Source of the DNA: a bacterium
GTDB lineage: Bacteria > Actinomycetota > Acidimicrobiia > Acidimicrobiales > Bin134
Reading direction: 5' to 3'
NCBI GenBank assembly: GCA_026705465.1
Contig: JAPPAP010000004.1
Coordinates: forward strand, 20,337-84,336
Length of the DNA: 64,000 nucleotides
Both the position numbers and the translations under genes were made by a program. How positions within the stretch are numbered: the first letter of the stretch is position 1; each line of letters starts with the position of its first letter. Positions 43,957 to 61,253 of the stretch are shown here, piece by piece. The notes under the pieces are model-generated. The model saw nothing but the letters and a program-made list of their open reading frames with translations. It was not told the origin of the DNA and ran no database searches.

Positions 43957-45312
43957 CTATTCCAGCGCCACCTCTTCGCAAAGCGACGGTGCACTGGCTG
44001 GATCGAACACCCTGGGTCGCGAGACGAACCCCGTGCCGGGGCGATCAGTAGTCAAATAGGCCTCAATGGCATCGGCGGTGGCATTGGCAGCGACGCTGAT
44101 GTACCCATCGGTAGCGAACAGCGCAGCTTCGGAAGGGTTGGACAAGAAGCCGTACTCGATGAGAACAGCCGGAACATTGGGATGACGGATCATGCCGTAG
44201 GCGTCATGGCCGTCGGGGAGCAACACCCGCAGCACCCCAGCGCCAGCGTGCCTGCCCCAACTGATGTTGGGAAAGCCGTTCAGCGCCCTGGTGATCTCCT
44301 CGTAGAGGAGCCCGCCAAGACGAGCTGAATCGGCTCGGGACTCTGAGCGCGACACCGACTGCACATACACCTCGGTGCCAGGCGTGCTGCTTCTCCGCCC
44401 CGTGGGTGCGTTGTGGTGGATCGAGATGATGGCATCGGCCCTCAGGTCGTCGGCCAAGGCGGCCCGTACCGACAGGAGCGAGCCGTAGGAACCGGTGCGA
44501 GCGAGCACCGCAGAGATGTCGCGATCAGCGAGCTCCTTTGCAATGGCGCGGCTGAGAGTCAGGTTCAGATCGCGCTCCACCAGGCCGTTGGGTCCCACCG
44601 CCCCGGTGTCCCACCATCCCCCGTGGCCCGGGTCGAGCACGATCTGCGCCCCGTAGATGGGCTGACCGCCCGACACCTCCGCGGTATTGCCGCATGGCGT
44701 GCGAACCAAGTAGCCGCTGCCGACTCGGCCGAGAACGGCGACCGGCACTCCTCTCGGCGTGATCAACCCCCGCGGGGTGTCTTCTTCAGCGCCTGCTGGA
44801 GATTCACCAGCATCGAGGGGCGGCGACAGAGTCACCGGGGGGGAGATCGTAAGCGGCGAACTGGAACGCCAGCGCCCGATCTCGACATCGCTAGACAAGA
44901 ACCGGCGAGTAGGAAGCATCCGGTCCCCCCAGCCCAAGCCCTCCCCCAACTGCTGCAACGCTACTTCGGTTCCCCTGGTGCCAACTCGGCGGGCGGCAAT
45001 GCGAACCCACTGCTCTCCAGCCAGGGTTTGCAATGCTACCGGGGAGCTATAGCGCCAGCGCCCGATCTCTACGTCGTCAGACAAGAACCGCTCCGCCGGC
45101 AACACCAGATCGCCCCAATGATTGCCGCCCTCGTACGGCTGCAAGGCCACCTCTGTTCCCCCGGCGGCAACCCGGCGGGCGGCAATCCGCACTTGGACCT
45201 CGCTCTGGGCACCGGCAAAGGAGCAGATCGGACCCAACACCGCCGATACGAGCACGATCGCCACCGCCGCCAGCAGGCGAGTGGGCCGCCTGCCACACCT
45301 CCGCGCCCTCAC
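43957..45312 (-). CDS. N-acetylmuramoyl-L-alanine amidase (Amidase_3) with a signal peptide and duplicated N-terminal domain
   Basis: Catalytic domain sequence (VLDPGHGG, NLTLSRAIAKEL, ISIHHNA). N-terminal hydrophobic signal. Two copies of an uncharacterised module of about 54 aa. Confidence 0.85.
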   Translation of the reverse strand: MRARRCGRRPTRLLAAVAIVLVSAVLGPICSFAGAQSEVQVRIAARRVAAGGTEVALQPYEGGNHWGDLVLPAERFLSDDVEIGRWRYSSPVALQTLAGEQWVRIAARRVGTRGTEVALQQLGEGLGWGDRMLPTRRFLSSDVEIGRWRSSSPLTISPPVTLSPPLDAGESPAGAEEDTPRGLITPRGVPVAVLGRVGSGYLVRTPCGNTAEVSGGQPIYGAQIVLDPGHGGWWDTGAVGPNGLVERDLNLTLSRAIAKELADRDISAVLARTGSYGSLLSVRAALADDLRADAIISIHHNAPTGRRSSTPGTEVYVQSVSRSESRADSARLGGLLYEEITRALNGFPNISWGRHAGAGVLRVLLPDGHDAYGMIRHPNVPAVLIEYGFLSNPSEAALFATDGYISVAANATADAIEAYLTTDRPGTGFVSRPRVFDPASAPSLCEEVALE

Positions 45313-45415
45313 TGTGCCCCACTATCCATGACACTCCACAACTAGTAGCCCACAGCCAATCCCGCCAAACGAGGCGGCTGTTGGTGGTCCGTCTGTGAAT
45401 TGGCAGGGCGTCCTG

Positions 45416-47893
<2,478 letters not shown>

Positions 47894-51468: not shown

Positions 51469-51516
51469 TTGGCGATCAGACGGAACCTCTCTGGGGTCCT
51501 ATGCGTCTTACTGGCA

Positions 51517-54500
51517 ATGAACAAGGGACTTGTTGGCGTCCTTGCCTGCCTCGCCCTGGTTGGCACAATCTCGGCAATAGAGTCCAGCGCAACGGCTTCC
51601 GACGAGGCTGACCCGGCAACGGTCTCGGGCATCGACTGCGAAGCTCGCTACCGCTTCGGCACCGGCGATTGGTACTCACCCGACGGGGCCACCTGCGTGT
51701 TGGTCAACTACTTCCCCGGCGAAGATCCTGCACTGAGCTTTGCCATCGAACTCTGGCGTACCGAGAACCACGACCAATACCAGAACTACCTCAACCGAGT
51801 CATCGAACAAGCCAGCGGCGAACCCCGTTTTTCTGACGAGAGGAACCGGGTTAGCCGAAATTCGACCACTACGGCTGATGCACCAACCGAATTCCCTTCT
51901 ACCGACCTTATCTGCACATTTCGCCACGGCTTCGGCTCCGGCGACTGGTACTCACCCGACGGCAGAACCTGCGCCCTTGTCAACTACTTCCCCGGCGAAG
52001 ACCCCGCCTTCGGCACCGCTGTCAAACTTTGGCGTACCGAGAATCCCGACCAATACCAGAGCTACCTGGACCGGATCCCCGCACCGGCCACGCCAAACCG
52101 ATACCAGGCTGTCGTGGCGGGCGGACCACAGACTTGCGGCCTGCGAGTAAACGGCACCATCAACTGCTGGGGTGGATACCCACACGACCGAGTCGAGCCA
52201 CCCGAGGGCACCTATACTTCCATCACAAGCGGTAATAGTCACATATGCGCACTCGCTACCGACCAGACCATCGCCTGCTGGGGCAACAATCGGCATGGTC
52301 AAAACGACCCGCCTGAGGGCACATTCACATCCATCGCGACCCAACGCTCACACTCGTGTGGCATCCGCACCGACGGCACCGTCGCCTGCTGGGGGGGCAA
52401 TTACTTTGGCCAATCAACGCCACCCGAAGGCACATTCACCGCTCTCGCGACCGGCTACAGCCACTCATGCGGCATTCGGACAGGTGGCACCATCACCTGC
52501 TGGGGCGATGACTGGGACGGTCAACTATCCGCCCTTGAAGGCACGTACACCACGATCGCAACCGCGTCCGATTACCTGTGCGCAATCGCCACCGATCAGA
52601 CCATCGCCTGCTGGGGCGAAAACAGTTACGGCCCGATCAACGCACCTGACGGCACATTCACCGCCATGGCTGGCGACCATCCCTCTTGTGGTTTGCGCAC
52701 CGACCAGACCATCGCCTGCTGGGGTCTTCCCTCCTATCTTGAGCGCCAGATCCCTGACGGCACATACACCGCAATCACCCCCGGTTTGTGCGCACTGGCC
52801 ACCGACCAGACCATCGCCTGCTGGGGCAACAACGACTACGGCCAAACCGACGTCCCCGAAGGCACCTATACGAATGTTACATCGGGTGGAGGTTTCGCAT
52901 GCGGGCTGCGCACCAACCAAACCATCATCTGCTGGGGCCTGAACCAGCTTGAACAGGCCACCACTCCAGACAGGCAGTTCACCGCAGTGGACTGGACCAG
53001 TGACTCTGGCCTTACCGCCAGCCCCTATTGGTGCGGACTGCACACCGATCAGTCCATCTCTTGCTGGGGCTACCGAAACGAATTCCCCAGCGGCTCCTTT
53101 ACGTCCGTCTCGTCTGGGCACAGATTCGGATGCGGCATCCGAACTGATAAGGCCATTGCCTGCTGGGGCAACAACGACTACGGACAGATAAACGCCCCTT
53201 CCGGCACATTCGTATCCGTCGCAGCTGGCGGCAGCAAGGCATGCGGTATCCGAACCGATCAAACCATCACCTGCTGGCCCGGCCAGGAGTCTGTGCCAGA
53301 GGGCACATTCACCGCCGTAGCGGTCGATTTTGGCCATGCGTGCGGCATCCGAACTGCCCAGACCATCACCTGTTGGGGCGACAACAGTTCCGGCCAACTC
53401 GACGCGCCCGACGGCACCTTCATTGCAGTCTTGGTAGGCACCAACTTCGACGCCATGTATGGCGATGATGACTACTACTCATGCGCCCTTCGCACCAGCG
53501 GCAAAGTCGCCTGCTGGGGCAGCTACCGCTACGACGGAGAAACTGAAAGTCCAAGCATGACCTACATTGCCATCTCTCCAGGTGGGGACCACTATTGCGG
53601 TCTTCTAGTCGACAGAACTGTCACCTGCTGGGGCCGCAACGAGTACGGCGAGGCGGAGGCTCCAGACGGCACCTTCTCTGCCATCGGAGTCAGCAGGTAC
53701 CTATCTTGTGGAATTCGATCCGACGGGACCATTGCCTGCTGGGGCGCCCCTGGACTCGTTCATGGCATACCTGAGGGCACCTTCACCTCCATCACACTTG
53801 GCTCCTACCACACCTGCGCGCTGAGCACAGAAGGCACCATCGCCTGCTGGGGCGCCATCGACGATGATGGCCAGCTCAATGCGCCGAAAGGCACCTACGA
53901 TTCCATCAGTGTCCACTCCGATCACACTTGTGCGCTGAGCACCGACCAGACGATCGCCTGCTGGGGAAGTAACGACCAGGGACAGACTGATGCCCCCGAA
54001 GGCACTTACACCTCCATCGAGTATTTTGGTTCCCGCTCATGCGCTCTGAGCACAGAAGGCACCATCGCCTGCTGGGGAGACAAAGCCATCGGAATGGCTG
54101 ACGCCCTCGAAGGCACCTACACCTCCATCGCTCTCGGCTTTCGCCACAGTTGCGCTCTGAGCACAGAAGGCACCATCGCCTGCTGGGGGAGCAACTCCAC
54201 CGGCCAAACCGACGCCCCCGAGGGCGCCTTCTCGGTCATCTCCGCCGGCTACGACCACTCATGTGGGCTGCGCATCAGCGGTGCTGTTGCATGCTGGGGC
54301 TCGAACGTACACGGCCAGACCGACGCCCCCGAAGGTGCTTTCTGGTACATCGCTGCCGGATTCCACCACACCTGTGGAATTCGCACAGACCAGACCATTA
54401 CCTGCTGGGGCAGCAACACCATGGGCCAAAGCGATGCACCCAACGGGACCTACAAGAGCCTCATCGTTGATGGCTATACCTCGTGCGCGCTGCGGTCCGA

Positions 54501-54558
54501 TGATGTATTCCTTTGCTGGGGCTACGACCTCGCTTTCCAGCGGGACGAATTCAGATAG
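51517..54558 (+). CDS. Large secreted RCC1-like repeat protein (22 short Cys-containing blades) with a duplicated N-terminal module
   Basis: The ATG at 51517 gives a Sec-type signal (MNKGLVGVLACLALVGTISAIESSA|TA). The ORF track starts at a TTG at 51469. There are 22 copies of the pattern GT(F/Y)TxIxxGxxHxC(A/G)(L/I)xTDQTI(A/T)CWGxNxxGQxDxP. Confidence 0.8.
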   Translation: MNKGLVGVLACLALVGTISAIESSATASDEADPATVSGIDCEARYRFGTGDWYSPDGATCVLVNYFPGEDPALSFAIELWRTENHDQYQNYLNRVIEQASGEPRFSDERNRVSRNSTTTADAPTEFPSTDLICTFRHGFGSGDWYSPDGRTCALVNYFPGEDPAFGTAVKLWRTENPDQYQSYLDRIPAPATPNRYQAVVAGGPQTCGLRVNGTINCWGGYPHDRVEPPEGTYTSITSGNSHICALATDQTIACWGNNRHGQNDPPEGTFTSIATQRSHSCGIRTDGTVACWGGNYFGQSTPPEGTFTALATGYSHSCGIRTGGTITCWGDDWDGQLSALEGTYTTIATASDYLCAIATDQTIACWGENSYGPINAPDGTFTAMAGDHPSCGLRTDQTIACWGLPSYLERQIPDGTYTAITPGLCALATDQTIACWGNNDYGQTDVPEGTYTNVTSGGGFACGLRTNQTIICWGLNQLEQATTPDRQFTAVDWTSDSGLTASPYWCGLHTDQSISCWGYRNEFPSGSFTSVSSGHRFGCGIRTDKAIACWGNNDYGQINAPSGTFVSVAAGGSKACGIRTDQTITCWPGQESVPEGTFTAVAVDFGHACGIRTAQTITCWGDNSSGQLDAPDGTFIAVLVGTNFDAMYGDDDYYSCALRTSGKVACWGSYRYDGETESPSMTYIAISPGGDHYCGLLVDRTVTCWGRNEYGEAEAPDGTFSAIGVSRYLSCGIRSDGTIACWGAPGLVHGIPEGTFTSITLGSYHTCALSTEGTIACWGAIDDDGQLNAPKGTYDSISVHSDHTCALSTDQTIACWGSNDQGQTDAPEGTYTSIEYFGSRSCALSTEGTIACWGDKAIGMADALEGTYTSIALGFRHSCALSTEGTIACWGSNSTGQTDAPEGAFSVISAGYDHSCGLRISGAVACWGSNVHGQTDAPEGAFWYIAAGFHHTCGIRTDQTITCWGSNTMGQSDAPNGTYKSLIVDGYTSCALRSDDVFLCWGYDLAFQRDEFR
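52102..54540 (+). repeat. Intragenic tandem coding repeats (22 units, ~105-135 nt each)
   Basis: Counted from the 22 CWG/CWP motifs in the translation. Several units share near-identical DNA, for example a 38-nt string at 54040 and 54151. Confidence 0.85.
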
Positions 54559-56983: not shown

Positions 56984-58354
56984 GGTCCGGGCACCGTCGG
57001 CAAATTCGCCGATGGCCACTGCCCGCTCCGGACCCTCCCGGCCCCAGATCACGGTGTAGGACACCACTTCGGCCCGCTCTCCGTCGCCCGTGCGATAGGG
57101 CTTGGGCTGGAGCTCAGCGGCCACCGCATCGGTCACATCGATGTTGGCAAACGGCTGCTCTGGGGGTTGGGCCGACCACATGCTGGCCCCTTGCTTGGTG
57201 ATCATCCCGCTGATTGAAGTCAGCAGACCGGTCGACTCAGGATCGGCTCGTAGTACCTGGACCAGCTTCGCCGCGGCTTGGATCACGTAGTTGTTGAGTG
57301 GCCCGCCAGCCCAAGTCATCCCCCCGGTCACGGTCAGATCTCGGGCTAGGTCCATGCCCAACTCCAAGGCCTGCGTGCGCACCGCAATGGGGAAACAGGA
57401 GTACAGGTCCACGTGATCGGCCTCATTGGGGGCCATGCCCACATGGTTGGCCAGGGCCCGGCCGGCGTGGGCGAATCCCGGACTGCGGTGAAGCTCGGGA
57501 CGCTCGGTCACCGGCACCATGTGGTTGGACTCGGCCGCGGCCCAGGGGAACACCCAGCGATCCGAGGAGACGCCCAGCGCCCGGGCGGTTCCCGCCGAGC
57601 AGAAGATCAGCGCGGCGGCCTGATCCACGTTCCACTGGGAGTTGTGCCACTTGGTGTAGGGCCAGGCCAGCATCCGGTTGCCCTTTTCTGGGGTGGCGAT
57701 GGCCGCGGCATCCAGACCGTCTTGGAACCAGGCATCGGGGTTAGCCGCAGCCACCTGGGCGAAGCGGGCCCACAGTCCGGCCACCTCGTCGCGGTGCTCT
57801 TCGATGGACTGGCCGTCGGCGAACCGACGGGCGTTCTCGATCATGGCGTAGTGGTGGGTGGCCATCACCAGTCCGGTGTCGATCTCTGCTCGGCTGATGA
57901 TCATTCCGTGAGGAGTGACGAAGTCGTCGGGCTCGGCACCGCCTTGGTCGGTATCGGGAGCCTCGATGCCGGTGATCGACGCCCGCAGTCCCCGATACTT
58001 GGCCTCCCCGCCCACTACCGCGATCACATCGGCCGACCCCAACGCGATGGCCGCGGCCGCATCGCCCATCACCGCGGTCTGCAAGATGCCCACATCACCC
58101 AAATAGCTCCGGGCCTGGGTCGCCCCCACCTCGTCAGCCACCCACCGGGCCGGATCGGCATAGCCCCAGGTGCCTTGGGTCACCCTCACCTGATCCAATC
58201 GGTCTATCAGGCTGCTGGACCCGGCGTCATCAGCCGCCGCCACCAGCGCCTGAGCCATGAGGGCCACTGCCTCATTCGCCTCGGTGGGATCATCAAACCG
58301 CTGAGTAGCCGTCCCCACCCCCACCAACACCGGAGTCCTGTCGTCAACGCTCAC
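56876..58354 (-). CDS. Thiolase-like (SCP-x/Ltp-type) protein lacking the N-terminal nucleophilic Cys, with a C-terminal extension
   Basis: Thiolase-fold sequence (DVIAVVGGE, HVDLYSCFP, VTGGMTWAGGPLNNY). There is no Cys in about the first 260 residues. An extra C-terminal domain of about 100 aa is present. Confidence 0.7.
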   Translation of the reverse strand: MSVDDRTPVLVGVGTATQRFDDPTEANEAVALMAQALVAAADDAGSSSLIDRLDQVRVTQGTWGYADPARWVADEVGATQARSYLGDVGILQTAVMGDAAAAIALGSADVIAVVGGEAKYRGLRASITGIEAPDTDQGGAEPDDFVTPHGMIISRAEIDTGLVMATHHYAMIENARRFADGQSIEEHRDEVAGLWARFAQVAAANPDAWFQDGLDAAAIATPEKGNRMLAWPYTKWHNSQWNVDQAAALIFCSAGTARALGVSSDRWVFPWAAAESNHMVPVTERPELHRSPGFAHAGRALANHVGMAPNEADHVDLYSCFPIAVRTQALELGMDLARDLTVTGGMTWAGGPLNNYVIQAAAKLVQVLRADPESTGLLTSISGMITKQGASMWSAQPPEQPFANIDVTDAVAAELQPKPYRTGDGERAEVVSYTVIWGREGPERAVAIGEFADGARTLLVSSVPAVMAAAVVGEFSGRIVSVNADGTFTPAD

Positions 58355-58389
58355 GTCCGCACCCTAACGGCCCCCATGGCGCCGAGACG

Positions 58390-58866
58390 ATGTACCGTCA
58401 CCCTATGGAGCAATGGGAATTGATCGCTCGGGAATCGATCCGGGACTTGGTGGCCCGGTACAACGCCAACGGAGATTCGGGCCGATTCGACCAAGTGATG
58501 GACCTGTTTGCCCCCGACGCCATCATGCGGACGCCGACGCAGCCCGACAAGTACGGCATCGACGAAATCCGCACCATTTTCACCGGAGCCAAAGACACCC
58601 TGTCCGAGATCGGCGGCGGCACCCCCAAGTACATCCGCCACCACACCGCCACCCACCAGATCGACTTGCTCTCGCCCACGGAGGCCAAGGGCCGCTGCTA
58701 TTACCACGTGATCATGGAGCACGGCCTCGACCACTGGGGCCGCTACATCGACCGCTACGGCGTGGTCGACGGACAATGGCTGTTCACCGAACGGTCGGTA
58801 ACCATGGATGGCTACATTCCCGGCGGCTGGGGCGACCATAACGCCAGCCGGGGCCGTGATTACTGA
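58390..58866 (+). CDS. SnoaL-like/NTF2-fold protein
   Basis: About 158 aa. IRDLVARYNANGDSGRFDQVMDLFAPDAI... is typical of SnoaL_4/NTF2-like proteins. Confidence 0.65.
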   Translation: MYRHPMEQWELIARESIRDLVARYNANGDSGRFDQVMDLFAPDAIMRTPTQPDKYGIDEIRTIFTGAKDTLSEIGGGTPKYIRHHTATHQIDLLSPTEAKGRCYYHVIMEHGLDHWGRYIDRYGVVDGQWLFTERSVTMDGYIPGGWGDHNASRGRDY

Positions 58867-58872
58867 GTTTCG

Positions 58873-58911
58873 TACACCTTTTTTACACCTTATACATCTA
58901 TAGAATGTATA
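58873..58911. promoter_or_regulatory. AT-rich promoter/operator region upstream of vapB
   Basis: Direct repeat TACACCT (58873 and 58885), then the inverted repeat TATACAT-N7-ATGTATA (58891-58911). Ends 11 nt before the vapB ATG. Confidence 0.4.
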
Positions 58912-58921
58912 AAGTGGCTCT

Positions 58922-59155
58922 ATGGAGCAACCCAGCACCCGTACTCGCACTAATATCGAGATTGACGATCGGCTCCTCGATGTAGTCATGCGCCGCTACA
59001 ACCTGCGCACCAAGACTGAGGCAGTTGACATCGCATTGAGTCGCCTAGCAGGGCTTCCTCTGACCACTCAGGAGATGCTGGGAATGCAGGGAGCCCAGTT
59101 GATCGGCGAAATCCCGCCTGACACCGGCCTCCACCCCATCGGGCCTCAGCCGTGA
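58922..59155 (+). CDS. vapB: Type II antitoxin VapB (Arc/MetJ-like)
   Basis: RTNIEIDDRLLDVVMRRYNLRTKTEAVDIALSRL pattern. 4-nt overlap with vapC. Confidence 0.75.
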   Translation: MEQPSTRTRTNIEIDDRLLDVVMRRYNLRTKTEAVDIALSRLAGLPLTTQEMLGMQGAQLIGEIPPDTGLHPIGPQP

Positions 59156-59556
59156 TCCTGGCCGACACCTCCGCGTGGATGGAGTACGACCGGGGCACCA
59201 ACTCCCCGGTTCGCGCCCGGCTGGGCCAACTCATCGCCGATGGCGGTCGCCACGTGGCCGTCACTGAACCGGTACTGATGGAGGTGTTGGGAGGAGCCAA
59301 GGACGACCAAAGCCACCAAAAGCTCTACAACCTGCTGACGTCGGTGTCGTGGCTGGCCATGAACCCAACTGCCGATTTTGAGGGCGCGGCCCGCATCAAT
59401 CGGGTCTGCCGAACCAATGGGGTGGCCGCGCCGGGCTACATCGTGTGCATGATCGCCAATATCGCACTGCGAACCGGGTCAGAGATCCTGACCGCCGACC
59501 AGGATTTTCACCGCGTGGCCGAACTATTCCCTCTCAAGATTGCTGCGGTGCCCTAA
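59152..59556 (+). CDS. vapC: Type II toxin VapC (PIN domain)
   Basis: MILADTSAWMEY, MEVLGG and TADQDF acidic PIN residues. Confidence 0.85.
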   Translation: MILADTSAWMEYDRGTNSPVRARLGQLIADGGRHVAVTEPVLMEVLGGAKDDQSHQKLYNLLTSVSWLAMNPTADFEGAARINRVCRTNGVAAPGYIVCMIANIALRTGSEILTADQDFHRVAELFPLKIAAVP

Positions 59557-61253
59557 GAGGGCACCGGCGTGTTGGCGTCGAGCACCGCACCGGGGTTGGA
59601 ACCGGTAAGGGTGCCCTCCACTTGGGTGAGCACGCCGTTGACCGCGGTGGCCCGATAGCCCCCCGCCGGGCGGCGCAAACGGGGAGCACCCGAGGGCAGA
59701 TCGGACACAAACCTGTCGGTGTCCCACGACAATTCTTCCAAGTCGAAGACGGTCACATCGCCGGCGTAGCCGGGCAGCAGGCGTCCCCGGTCGTTGAACC
59801 CCAAGACCTCGGCCTGCCGACCGGTGATCTCGTATACCGCGTCCTCCAGCTCCAGATCGCCCCGGTCGCGCACATGCCGGGTCAACAGCAGGGTGGTGTC
59901 GCCCGCCGCACACATCATCTGCACATGGGCGCCGGCATCAGAGGCACTGATCAGACAGCGCTCATCGGCGATCATCTGGGCTACGCCGTTGGTGTTGCTG
60001 TTGCTCACGCCCATGGCCACGACCCCGGGCTCCAAGTCGTTCTCCAGAATCCAGTCGGCAAACACGTCGGAGGGGTGGCCGCCCCGAGCCTCGGTCAGCT
60101 CGGCCAGCGAGCGGCCCAGCCAAGCTTCGTTTTCGGGTCGGGTCACCGAGGTGAACCGCGCGAAGTCGGGCCGGTTGATGGGGAACAGCGACTTCTCGGT
60201 GGCATCCCACTCGTTGCGGGCAATCTCACGCCAGCCGGGATCGGCCAGCATCTCCCGCCGGGCCTCACCGGACACCCCCATGATCTGGTTCCAGCCCTTG
60301 GGGAGCATCATGAACACCATGGTCTGCTCCCAACTCACGTTGAGGTCCACGGTGCGGGGCGAGGATATTGGCCACATGTCGCAGCCCTCATCCCGGATGG
60401 CCTGGGTGAACGCCATGTATTCCTCCGGGCGGTGCGGGGCCATGTCGCTGTGAGAAACCCCATTCCATATGGAGGTCACCCCCCGGGGACCGAGCACCCG
60501 CGCCATCCGGCGAATATCAGCCTCGGGATCCTCGCCAGTGAGGTTGGGGATGAACTCGACCACTCCGTGGCCCGCGGCCGACAGCACGTTGGCCAACGCG
60601 CTCAGCTCCCCGTCGCAGGCCAGCCGACTGGGCACCGGACGGCTGCGCCGGTCCAAGTCAAAGAATGATGTGCTGAAGCCGTAGCAACCTGCCTCCATGG
60701 CATCGGCCATCTCGGCAGCCATGGCGGCGATCTCGTCTTCGGTGGCCTCTCGGGTCCAGGCGTCGTCACCCATCACGTAGATCCGCAGCATGGAATGGCC
60801 GATCAGCGAGGCCATGTTCAGCGCGATTCCCCCCTGATTCATGGCGTCGCGGTAGTGGCGCCAAGAACCCCAGGTCCAGGGAATGCCCGACTCGAAGTCG
60901 GCCACCGGCATGTCCTCGATGTAGCAGAACACGTCGATGAGTTCGTCGAGATGCTCGGGCTTGGCCGGAGCCAGCGACAGTGAGCAGTTGCCGATCAACG
61001 CGGTGGTCACCCCGTGCTGGGGCATCGGATCGCACCCCCGGTCCCAAAACATCGACGGATCCAGGTGGGTGTGGGAGTCGATGAACCCGGGGCTCACGTA
61101 GCAGCCCCCAGCGTCTAGTTCGGTCTCACCATCGGGAGTCAAGCCGAGGCCAACCTCGGTGACAACGCCGTTGTTGATGCGCACATCGGCAGATCGGGCC
61201 GGGGCCCCGGTGCCGTCGATCAAATTGCCACCGCGAATTATCAGGTCGGACAT
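59553..61253 (-). CDS. N-acyl-D-amino-acid deacylase (D-aminoacylase) family amidohydrolase
   Basis: MSDLIIRGGNLIDGTG...VSPGFIDSHTHLD, with size and sequence typical of the family. Confidence 0.85.
   Translation of the reverse strand: MSDLIIRGGNLIDGTGAPARSADVRINNGVVTEVGLGLTPDGETELDAGGCYVSPGFIDSHTHLDPSMFWDRGCDPMPQHGVTTALIGNCSLSLAPAKPEHLDELIDVFCYIEDMPVADFESGIPWTWGSWRHYRDAMNQGGIALNMASLIGHSMLRIYVMGDDAWTREATEDEIAAMAAEMADAMEAGCYGFSTSFFDLDRRSRPVPSRLACDGELSALANVLSAAGHGVVEFIPNLTGEDPEADIRRMARVLGPRGVTSIWNGVSHSDMAPHRPEEYMAFTQAIRDEGCDMWPISSPRTVDLNVSWEQTMVFMMLPKGWNQIMGVSGEARREMLADPGWREIARNEWDATEKSLFPINRPDFARFTSVTRPENEAWLGRSLAELTEARGGHPSDVFADWILENDLEPGVVAMGVSNSNTNGVAQMIADERCLISASDAGAHVQMMCAAGDTTLLLTRHVRDRGDLELEDAVYEITGRQAEVLGFNDRGRLLPGYAGDVTVFDLEELSWDTDRFVSDLPSGAPRLRRPAGGYRATAVNGVLTQVEGTLTGSNPGAVLDANTPVPS

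Follow-up and report, generated by a model that had tools for sequence, protein, structure and literature searches.

A putatively secreted array of 22 RCC1/BLIP-II-type short blades with conserved cysteine pairs in an Acidimicrobiia genome

The canonical propellers of RCC1, UVR8 and the HERC RLDs are built from four-stranded blades of about 50–60 aa. They belong to the same superfamily as the repeat protein described here, but they are intracellular and without disulfides. BLIP-II from Streptomyces exfoliatus (PDB 1jtd, 3qhy) is a secreted actinobacterial short-blade protein consisting of one 7-blade propeller, with a period of 39 aa (37 in the protein described here) and three antiparallel strands per blade (PMC4617170); it binds class A β-lactamases with picomolar affinity. 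The CRINKLY4 plant receptor kinases (Arabidopsis ACR4 and PpCR4; PDB 7a0j, 7a0k) carry, in their ectodomain propeller, extracellular repeats of ~37–39 aa with the pattern CG[LIV]...CWG, as in our protein, and the two sub-motifs CG[LIV] and CWG have been described (PMC4617170). ACR4 has one 7-blade propeller, whose pore is filled by an N-terminal strand; a TNFR-like Cys-rich domain, a transmembrane helix and a kinase come after it. Each of its seven blades contains one disulfide, a pattern that its authors regarded as unique to CRINKLY4 (bioRxiv 10.1101/2020.08.10.245050). In bacteria, RCC1/BLIP-II proteins make up one of the largest groups of highly repetitive propellers (PMC9218822), and members of the RCC1_2 (PF13540)/COG5184 group, the "alpha-tubulin suppressor-like RCC1 family", share the 37-aa unit and the Cys pair with the protein reported here.

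Within the window (the whole stretch of 64,000 nucleotides that was analysed), positions 51517–54558 of the forward strand contain a single ORF encoding 1013 aa, stop codon included in the coordinates. The preliminary description had read this ORF from the ATG at 51517 or from a TTG at 51469, with the same end at 54558, and the public gene call contains the identical 1013-aa product. The ATG at 51517 is the likely start, since it agrees with the public gene call, the resulting N-terminus MNKGL is that of three orthologues, and the extension on the TTG side is unconserved among them. The features of the gene are:

51517..54558, + strand: complete gene for a putatively secreted RCC1_2/BLIP-II-type repeat protein (ORF, public gene call, Pfam, orthologues).
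51517..51597, + strand: putative Sec-type signal peptide, aa 1–20 or 1–27 (MNKGLVGVLACLALVGTISA/IESSATA/SD, slashes marking the candidate cleavage sites), read from the sequence and conserved in orthologues.
51622..51816, + strand: N-terminal module copy 1, aa 36–100, with a ~55-aa core and two Cys (C41, C60); the copies align.
51898..52101, + strand: N-terminal module copy 2, aa 128–195; the copies align.
52102..54519, + strand: array of 22 short-blade units, predicted to be three-stranded, aa 196–1001, each with a C-x9-11-CW pair (CW anchors, consensus, AlphaFold2, Foldseek, family profile).
52102..52824, + strand: units 1–7, aa 196–436, probable first 7-bladed propeller (high-pLDDT block, family linker, homologue run lengths).
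52936..53067, + strand: unit 9, aa 474–517, 44 aa long, the most divergent unit, modelled as disordered (pLDDT, unit comparison).
53743..53850, + strand: unit 16, aa 743–778, absent or replaced in both aligned orthologues (orthologue alignment).
54031..54141, + strand: clean 37-aa one-unit segment, aa 839–875, missing from both aligned orthologues (orthologue alignment).
54520..54555, + strand: conserved 12-aa C-terminal tail, GYDLAFQRDEFR (orthologue conservation; low pLDDT).

The array is defined by 22 "CW" anchors spaced 33–47 aa apart (mode 37), with the unit consensus GxNxxGQxxAPEGTFTxIxxGxxxxCGLRTDxTIACW, in which both Cys and the Trp are invariant. Positions G1, N3, G6, P11, G13, C26, T33, C36 and W37 are conserved, and the variable positions (2, 4, 5, 8, 12, 17, 19 and 22–23) lie in loops. 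The 22 units with two invariant Cys each that had been proposed initially were thus upheld. The accompanying figure of about 44 Cys is correct for the repeats (44) and too low for the whole protein, which has 49 because the N-terminal modules contribute another 4 and the signal peptide 1; leaving out the signal peptide, the count is even both here (48) and in the orthologues (44). Two further parts of the preliminary description did not stand. The repeats had been placed straight after the signal peptide, but ~170 aa with two 55-aa two-Cys modules lie between them. The 22 units had tentatively been divided into three 7-bladed propellers plus a closure strand, but the 22nd is a full three-strand unit and the orthologues have 20 units. 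Neither 22 nor 20 is a multiple of 7, and neither corresponds to a single closed 7-bladed propeller of the BLIP-II type. Comparing the 22 units for similarity at a period of 7, which might have phased the propellers, gave no signal. Units 1–7 would form a probable first 7-bladed propeller: in the structural model this block of high pLDDT is followed by a dip at aa 438–446, a longer linker stands behind unit 7 in the family consensus, and runs of 7 and 14 units dominate in homologues. Unit 9 falls below pLDDT 50 over aa 483–521 and shows the lowest similarity to all other units, yet it is conserved in the orthologues.

The RCC1-like identity initially assigned to the repeats was borne out by both profile searches and structure prediction. 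Pfam RCC1_2 (PF13540) matched far beyond chance, with E = 2.1e-104 and 339.5 bits over 14 stretches (cut-off 22), and WD40_RLD reached 184 bits, its cut-off being 150; NCBIfam gave no match to the repeat protein. A single-sequence phmmer search against the PDB returned weak matches only, to WD40 designs and RCC1, and profiles were required. Searched against solved structures, the family profile matched ACR4 (E = 1.6e-41), BLIP-II (1e-25), UVR8 (5e-24) and RCC1 at 1e-4 or better (yeast RCC1, E = 2.5e-17). The AlphaFold2 model has three strands (E-E-E) per 37-aa unit, pLDDT ≥ 70 for 659 residues and values mostly above 80 in the repeat region, with a pTM of 0.43 and pLDDT below 50 for the N-terminal 195 aa. 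The top Foldseek matches of this model were BLIP-II 1jtd (E = 7e-17, TM by target 0.67), ACR4 7a0j (E = 3e-15, rmsd 4.2 Å over 269 columns), UVR8 and RCC1, with a Foldseek probability of 1.00 each. As modelled, the repeat region is a β-propeller-type fold of the RCC1/BLIP-II lineage.

Among the Pfam hits of this protein, the canonical RCC1 model PF00415 is missing, which, together with the three strands per unit, agrees with the initial view that canonical RCC1 blades are longer than these units. The implication that such a "miniaturised" unit is unusual has to be dropped: it corresponds to the short-blade type already known from BLIP-II and CRINKLY4, and the 37-aa Cys-pair unit is found in more than 1,900 database proteins. 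Pfam and the PDB already cover the repeat type, the fold and the family, bacterial homologues number in the thousands, and as a propeller protein this one is ordinary. Membership of the RCC1 superfamily could also suggest a canonical RCC1-type guanine-nucleotide exchange factor or an intracellular eukaryote-like effector. We find this reading scarcely credible, given the missing PF00415 match, the three-strand 37-aa blades and the fact that RCC1 itself is only a distant profile match; moreover, a signal peptide (by reading) and 48 paired Cys point to an oxidising extracellular location.

The repeat protein is very probably secreted, judging from its N-terminal sequence. The putative signal peptide consists of MNK followed by GLVGVLACLALVGTISA and, by reading, begins with a basic stretch, continues with 17 hydrophobic residues and has small residues at positions -3 and -1 of the candidate cleavage sites ISA/IE or ATA/SD; its assignment rests on this layout and on conservation in the orthologues. 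Read from the ATG start, the protein has no twin-arginine motif, and Tat export, suggested by an RR in the TTG-extended N-terminus, was rejected on the grounds that the extension is unconserved in the orthologues. A lipoprotein was likewise rejected, Cys11 being too near the N-terminus and preceded by a Lys within 6 residues. The conserved C-terminal tail has no recognisable anchor motif; LPXTG, an SLH domain or a transmembrane segment were not seen in it by reading.

Among solved structures, ACR4 is the best relative by profile as well as a top Foldseek match, and both Cys columns of the family profile align with ACR4 cysteines. This homology, combined with the even Cys count, suggests that each unit probably contains one intra-blade disulfide, and the bacterial family shares the Cys pattern of the CRINKLY4 blade. 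The architectures differ: in place of one propeller, our protein has a soluble 22-unit array and a different N-terminal module, it ends 12 aa past unit 22, and the TNFR-like Cys-rich domain, transmembrane segment and kinase of ACR4 are absent. BLIP-II, the best Foldseek match, lacks a Cys pair per blade, unlike the repeat protein. Because BLIP-II is the top structural match (profile E as given above), and both are secreted actinobacterial proteins with three-stranded blades of 37–39 aa, we also considered a BLIP-II-like secreted inhibitor that blocks hydrolases of a competitor or host, such as a β-lactamase, a PBP-like enzyme or proteases. This role seems quite unlikely, as BLIP-II is a single 7-blade propeller without Cys pairs, its sequence similarity to our protein is weaker than that of ACR4, and the neighbourhood contains no β-lactam or cell-wall genes; nothing found here points to class A β-lactamases as a target.

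The two N-terminal modules align with each other over 55 aa (BLOSUM62 local score 236) and gave nothing significant against Pfam and the PDB. The module was found in just 3 clusters among 1.84 billion representatives, and it is likewise present in secreted CAP proteins and an adhesin-like protein of 2,893 aa; it is a rare unannotated domain common to three kinds of secreted protein. Its AlphaFold2 model, built on a 6-sequence alignment, has a pLDDT of 59 and is unreliable. The pair is possibly a docking or anchoring module. If so, the whole protein could be a structural component of the cell envelope or surface layer, in which the module pair tethers the array to the wall as SLH domains do elsewhere. 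Many homologues in other phyla indeed join propeller arrays to SLH triplets (PF00395), and the module itself sits at the ends of secreted proteins that have nothing else in common, as is typical of anchoring modules. We nevertheless judge a structural role unlikely, since the module has no detectable similarity to known wall-binding domains and is poorly modelled, and since the fast evolution and the gain and loss of blades described below suit an interaction surface better than a lattice.

By sequence, the protein belongs to the RCC1_2/COG5184 multi-propeller family, whose COG5184-type members are 30–45% identical to it over 50–80% of its length. Among the homologues carrying the 37-aa unit, totals of 14 and 21 units and uninterrupted runs of 7 and 14 are the most frequent, and the unit is fused to SLH, fn3, CAP, S8 and M6-like protease, Calx-beta and cadherin domains; these fusions to extracellular domains argue for an extracellular setting. 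Most COG5184-type members combine 14 or 21 units with SLH, fn3, CAP, Ig-like or protease domains, whereas our protein has 22 units (20 in its orthologues) and a lineage-restricted N-terminal module instead. Membership of a common, already characterised family had been named at the outset as an argument against novelty. The family is common and its fold characterised, but we found no COG5184-type member with an experimentally shown function. A literature search on RCC1 in sponge symbionts and on bacterial relatives of crinkly repeats yielded nothing relevant, and an exact-sequence cluster look-up showed that the repeat protein and its orthologues are absent from that collection.

The genomic setting agrees with what had been noted initially on two points. 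The repeat gene has a lower G+C content than its neighbours (0.605 versus 0.64–0.68; GC3 0.71 versus 0.81–0.89), and it shows no evident co-function with the flanking genes (BKACE, acyl-CoA dehydrogenase, amidohydrolase, MscS). The analysis revealed no ligand, partner gene or regulatory link, the neighbours being unrelated metabolic genes, no paralogue occurs within the 64-kb window, and a promoter and terminator scan around the gene returned nothing exceeding shuffled expectation. The deviating GC3, with lower GC and odd codon usage as the expected signs, and the lack of a functional link with the neighbours could indicate a foreign gene acquired recently, or else a decaying, functionless repeat ORF. 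However, three other Acidimicrobiia genomes carry the gene at the same position and in the same orientation, equally low in GC3, between flanking genes of 88–96% amino acid identity, which argues against recent acquisition as the cause of the low GC. Furthermore, all of these genomes have an uninterrupted reading frame for it, and conservation extends to every Cys and Trp. The dN/dS of the repeat gene (0.30–0.32) is 3–5 times that of its neighbours (0.06–0.14) but below 1, which, together with the syntenic orthologues, indicates that the gene is still functional. Acquisition or decay is thus largely refuted by synteny and dN/dS, and we consider it very improbable. A dN/dS of 0.3 fits relaxed constraint and diversifying selection equally well.

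The reading that we favour, with moderate confidence, is that of a Sec-exported multi-propeller extracellular binding scaffold of Acidimicrobiia with disulfide-stapled short blades. Export by Sec and removal of the signal peptide would yield a mature extracellular protein of two parts. The first would consist of the tandem rare 55-aa disulfide modules, with a possible docking or anchoring role, and the second of the 22 short three-stranded blades, arranged in several propellers, for which seven blades each are most likely. In every blade the invariant Cys on strand 2 would probably be linked to that on strand 3, giving one disulfide as in CRINKLY4, and ~24 disulfides in all would add to the stability of the extracellular protein. 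These propellers would most likely serve as binding platforms for an extracellular macromolecule of a host, matrix, prey or competitor, with specificity residing in the variable loops, namely the loop that joins one blade to the next and the turn connecting strand 1 to strand 2. The probably disulfide-stapled short blade, although described as CRINKLY4-unique, is widespread in bacteria, which bears on how the plant ectodomain originated and makes available many naturally occurring templates for extracellular propellers of great stability. A bolder extension, which we put forward tentatively and think rather unlikely, would have the bacterial Cys-pair arrays as the closest relatives, and possibly the source, of the CRINKLY4 ectodomain, and the arrays of sponge-associated Acidimicrobiia as fast-evolving host- or matrix-recognition proteins docked via the previously undescribed 55-aa disulfide module.

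The orthologues come from Acidimicrobiia MAGs, at least one of them from a sponge metagenome, and from these sample labels the host bacterium is probably sponge-associated. Between the Acidimicrobiia genomes the repeat protein is 58–71% identical, far less than the flanking genes; in global alignments its orthologues reach 64–71% identity to it. Such a fast-evolving gene with a changing number of blades, set in a strongly conserved syntenic symbiont block, is a candidate interaction protein for sponge–symbiont biology; its evolution, several-fold faster than that of the neighbours, and the gain and loss of whole blades suggest that the target of the proposed scaffold changes over time. At the DNA level, the sole tandem repeat lies at 53953–54229 (111 bp × 2.5, 75% matches) and encloses the one-unit segment at 54031–54141. 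With just this one weak 111-bp repeat, the array is old and does not stem from recent amplification.

The RCC1-like gene occupies the + strand of the window as a single long ORF that opens at TTG 51469 or ATG 51517 and ends with the stop codon at 54558. Translation likely begins at ATG 51517, since this 1013-aa product is also the one in the public gene call on an identical metagenome scaffold, the residues MNKGL open three orthologues, and the TTG extension is not conserved at the orthologous loci. The protein carries 49 Cys residues and 22 CW anchors spaced at 33–47 aa (mode 37), and its aligned units yield the consensus GxNxxGQxxAPEGTFTxIxxGxxxxCGLRTDxTIACW, in which the two Cys and the Trp are invariant. 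Pfam RCC1_2 matched 14 stretches (E = 2.1e-104) and the RCC1-like domain model WD40_RLD exceeded its curated cut-off; the Pfam output contained no match to the canonical RCC1 repeat model. Thus, the 22 Cys-containing RCC1-like units reported in the preliminary description were correctly observed. Its count of about 44 Cys holds for the repeats, to which four in the N-terminal region and one in the signal peptide have to be added. The repeats do not, as had been stated, directly follow the signal peptide, because two copies of a module missed in that account intervene:

51622–51816, + strand, module copy 1 (aa 36–100), two Cys, 55-aa core
51898–52101, + strand, module copy 2 (aa 128–195), two Cys, 55-aa core

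The full-length AF2 model (mean pLDDT 73, repeat region mostly >80, pTM 0.43) shows three beta-strands per unit with tight turns between them and a 13-residue loop joining the units. [quoted passage not shown] A profile of 21 aligned units gave E-values near 1e-10 for ACR4 and Physcomitrella CR4 but only 0.2 for BLIP-II, and a profile of 37 family members retrieved ACR4 at 1.6e-41, BLIP-II at 1e-25, UVR8 at 5e-24 and RCC1 proteins at 2.5e-17 down to 1e-4. In the profile alignments the cysteines of ACR4 align with both Cys columns of the window units. The repeat period of BLIP-II itself is 39 aa. The ACR4 crystal structure contains seven blades with one conserved disulfide each; structurally it comes closest to BLIP-II, in which these disulfides are missing (bioRxiv 10.1101/2020.08.10.245050). 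Therefore, the units first described as miniaturised RCC1-like repeats represent the Cys-stapled form of an already known branch of the RCC1/BLIP-II lineage, that with short blades. On the basis of ACR4 homology and the even Cys count left by signal-peptide removal (48 in the window protein, 44 in the orthologues), we infer one disulfide per blade. An intracellular RCC1-type GEF is excluded by the blade type, the signal peptide and the Cys pattern. The hitherto unremarked sequence kinship with plant CRINKLY4, Cys pattern included, is of mild interest: the Cys pattern was called unique by the authors of the ACR4 structure (bioRxiv 10.1101/2020.08.10.245050), and our literature search found no paper tying crinkly repeats to bacterial relatives besides BLIP-II.

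The window protein belongs to a known and abundant kind, and its earlier interpretation was right in part. At least 1,958 homologues were found at E <= 1e-5 among 8,000 candidates scored, the best being 30–45% identical to it, and those inspected share its 37-aa unit and Cys pair. Among the best 120 matches, an anchor spacing of 37 aa occurs in 1,279 cases, and unit totals have maxima at 14 (51 proteins) and 21 (19 proteins), as do unbroken runs of units at 7 and 14. This pattern speaks for 7-unit propeller modules as the family norm. The homologues are named in their sources as "alpha-tubulin suppressor-like RCC1 family protein", or not at all; RCC1/BLIP-II proteins are already known to form one of the biggest groups of highly repetitive propellers in bacteria (PMC9218822). 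Furthermore, family members sharing identical longest-contig sizes (for example P0029 and P0056, both 4,590,681 bp, and P0072 and P0084, both 2,009,871 bp) suggest that some lineages carry more than one or two such paralogues in a single genome.

The arrangement first proposed for the window protein, a closure strand added to three 7-bladed propellers, lacks support in that form, since in the AF2 model unit 22 has all three strands, comparison of the 22 units with one another gave no similarity at a period of 7, and each of the two full-length orthologues contains 20 units. Some observations are consistent with a first propeller formed by units 1–7, as a high-confidence block of the model ends in a pLDDT dip at aa 438–446 and the linker after unit 7 is longer in the family consensus. 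Of all units, the 44-aa unit 9 diverges most; it is disordered in the model, yet conserved among orthologues. A layout of three 7-bladed propellers, made of units 1–7, then unit 8 with units 10–15 (unit 9 being displaced), then units 16–22, may be put forward with low confidence.

An identical protein is encoded on ENA metagenome scaffold ROBB21-1_SAMN13943209, and orthologues are present in three other assemblies:

Acidimicrobiia MAG GCA_009843305.1, gene cut by the contig end
Acidimicrobiales MAG OZ242355.1, locus L007, 6001–8856
Acidimicrobiia MAG SB0677_bin_11, locus L008, 6001–8856

The lineage is very probably sponge-associated, because another bin of sample SB0677 belongs to the Entoporibacteria, which we take to be sponge-associated poribacteria. 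That MAG bin is described in PMC7883664. The window and the three assemblies share the gene order MFS transporter, BKACE, acyl-CoA dehydrogenase, RCC1-like gene, amidohydrolase, MscS and thiolase-like protein, and none of these neighbours hints at a shared function. Within this conserved symbiont locus the RCC1-like gene alone evolves fast, which is again mildly interesting:

Divergence from the orthologues
Amino-acid identity: flanking proteins 88–96%; RCC1-like protein 58–66% (BLAST), 64–71% (global)
dN/dS (Nei-Gojobori): flanking genes 0.06–0.14; RCC1-like gene 0.30–0.32
dS: flanking genes 0.32–0.62; RCC1-like gene 0.55–0.87

The 22 blades of the window protein and the 20 of both MAG orthologues reflect two unit-number differences. 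Unit 16 (aa 743–778; 53743–53850) is missing or replaced in both, and a clean 37-aa segment (aa 839–875; 54031–54141), lying inside the gene's only DNA-level tandem repeat (53953–54229, 111-bp), is absent from both. Orthologue identity is lowest at unit positions 2, 4, 5, 8, 12, 17, 19, 22 and 23, with the minimum at 23; the variable positions fall in the inter-blade loop and the strand 1–2 turn, and structural positions are fixed. The low GC3 of the gene (0.71, neighbours 0.81–0.89) is shared by the orthologues (0.69–0.74); it is therefore characteristic of the gene itself and does not indicate recent transfer. Moreover, a foreign or decaying gene is largely excluded by the synteny, the intact frames and dN/dS < 1.

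Several features together suggest that the protein is a multivalent binding scaffold, either secreted or docked at the surface, with a changing extracellular target: the Sec signal peptide, some 24 probable disulfides, a fold that in its solved members is, to our knowledge, known only as an extracellular binding platform, the extracellular partner domains of relatives (SLH, fn3, CAP, Ig-like, Calx-beta, cadherin, S8 peptidase and M6-like metalloprotease), and the concentration of change in loops together with the gain and loss of whole blades. BLIP-II is a beta-lactamase binder, and a putative groove for a ligand is present in ACR4; a BLIP-II-like hydrolase inhibitor or a wall-tethered structural protein are both possible.

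The rarity of the N-terminal module is likewise of mild interest. Both tandem copies carry the motif C-x3-FG-x-GDWYSPDG-x-TC-x-LVNYFP...LWRTENPDQYQ-x-YL, for which sequence comparison with Pfam and the PDB returned no relative; an AF2 model from a shallow alignment was unreliable (pLDDT 59) and was set aside. Searched by profile among 1.84 billion representative proteins, the module turned up in only three clusters: the orthologues of the RCC1-like gene; the small secreted proteins P0122 and P0123, which combine a single module with a signal peptide and a CAP domain; and P0124, a repeat-rich, adhesin-like protein of 2,893 aa with two copies at its extreme C-terminus. Because this small disulfide module occupies the ends of secreted proteins that are otherwise unrelated, it is a candidate new domain that might serve in docking or anchoring. 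A more distant syntenic genome carrying the P0122 gene lacks the RCC1-like gene after BKACE; therefore, the partners of the module differ between related genomes, at sites that lie close together. In that genome (loci L003–L005), the P0122 gene (5001–5678) lies between Amidase_3 and ClpC, which in the window are separated by only ~100 bp (45312 to 45416). Other family members bear a different duplicated two-Cys module of ~55 aa, C-x-EHH-x-FG...GCYL-x-LD, at one terminus (N-terminal in P0090, C-terminal in P0003), a placement resembling that of the window module.

Elsewhere in the window, two ORFs with no Pfam match, 58351–58989 (-) and 59445–60668 (+), have atypical GC3 values of 0.57 and 0.64, and a local G+C dip to ~0.59 (58400–59300) lies around them. 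The latter, of 407 aa, overlaps an opposite-strand 566-aa amidohydrolase ORF (59553–61253), which is probably the real gene of the pair.
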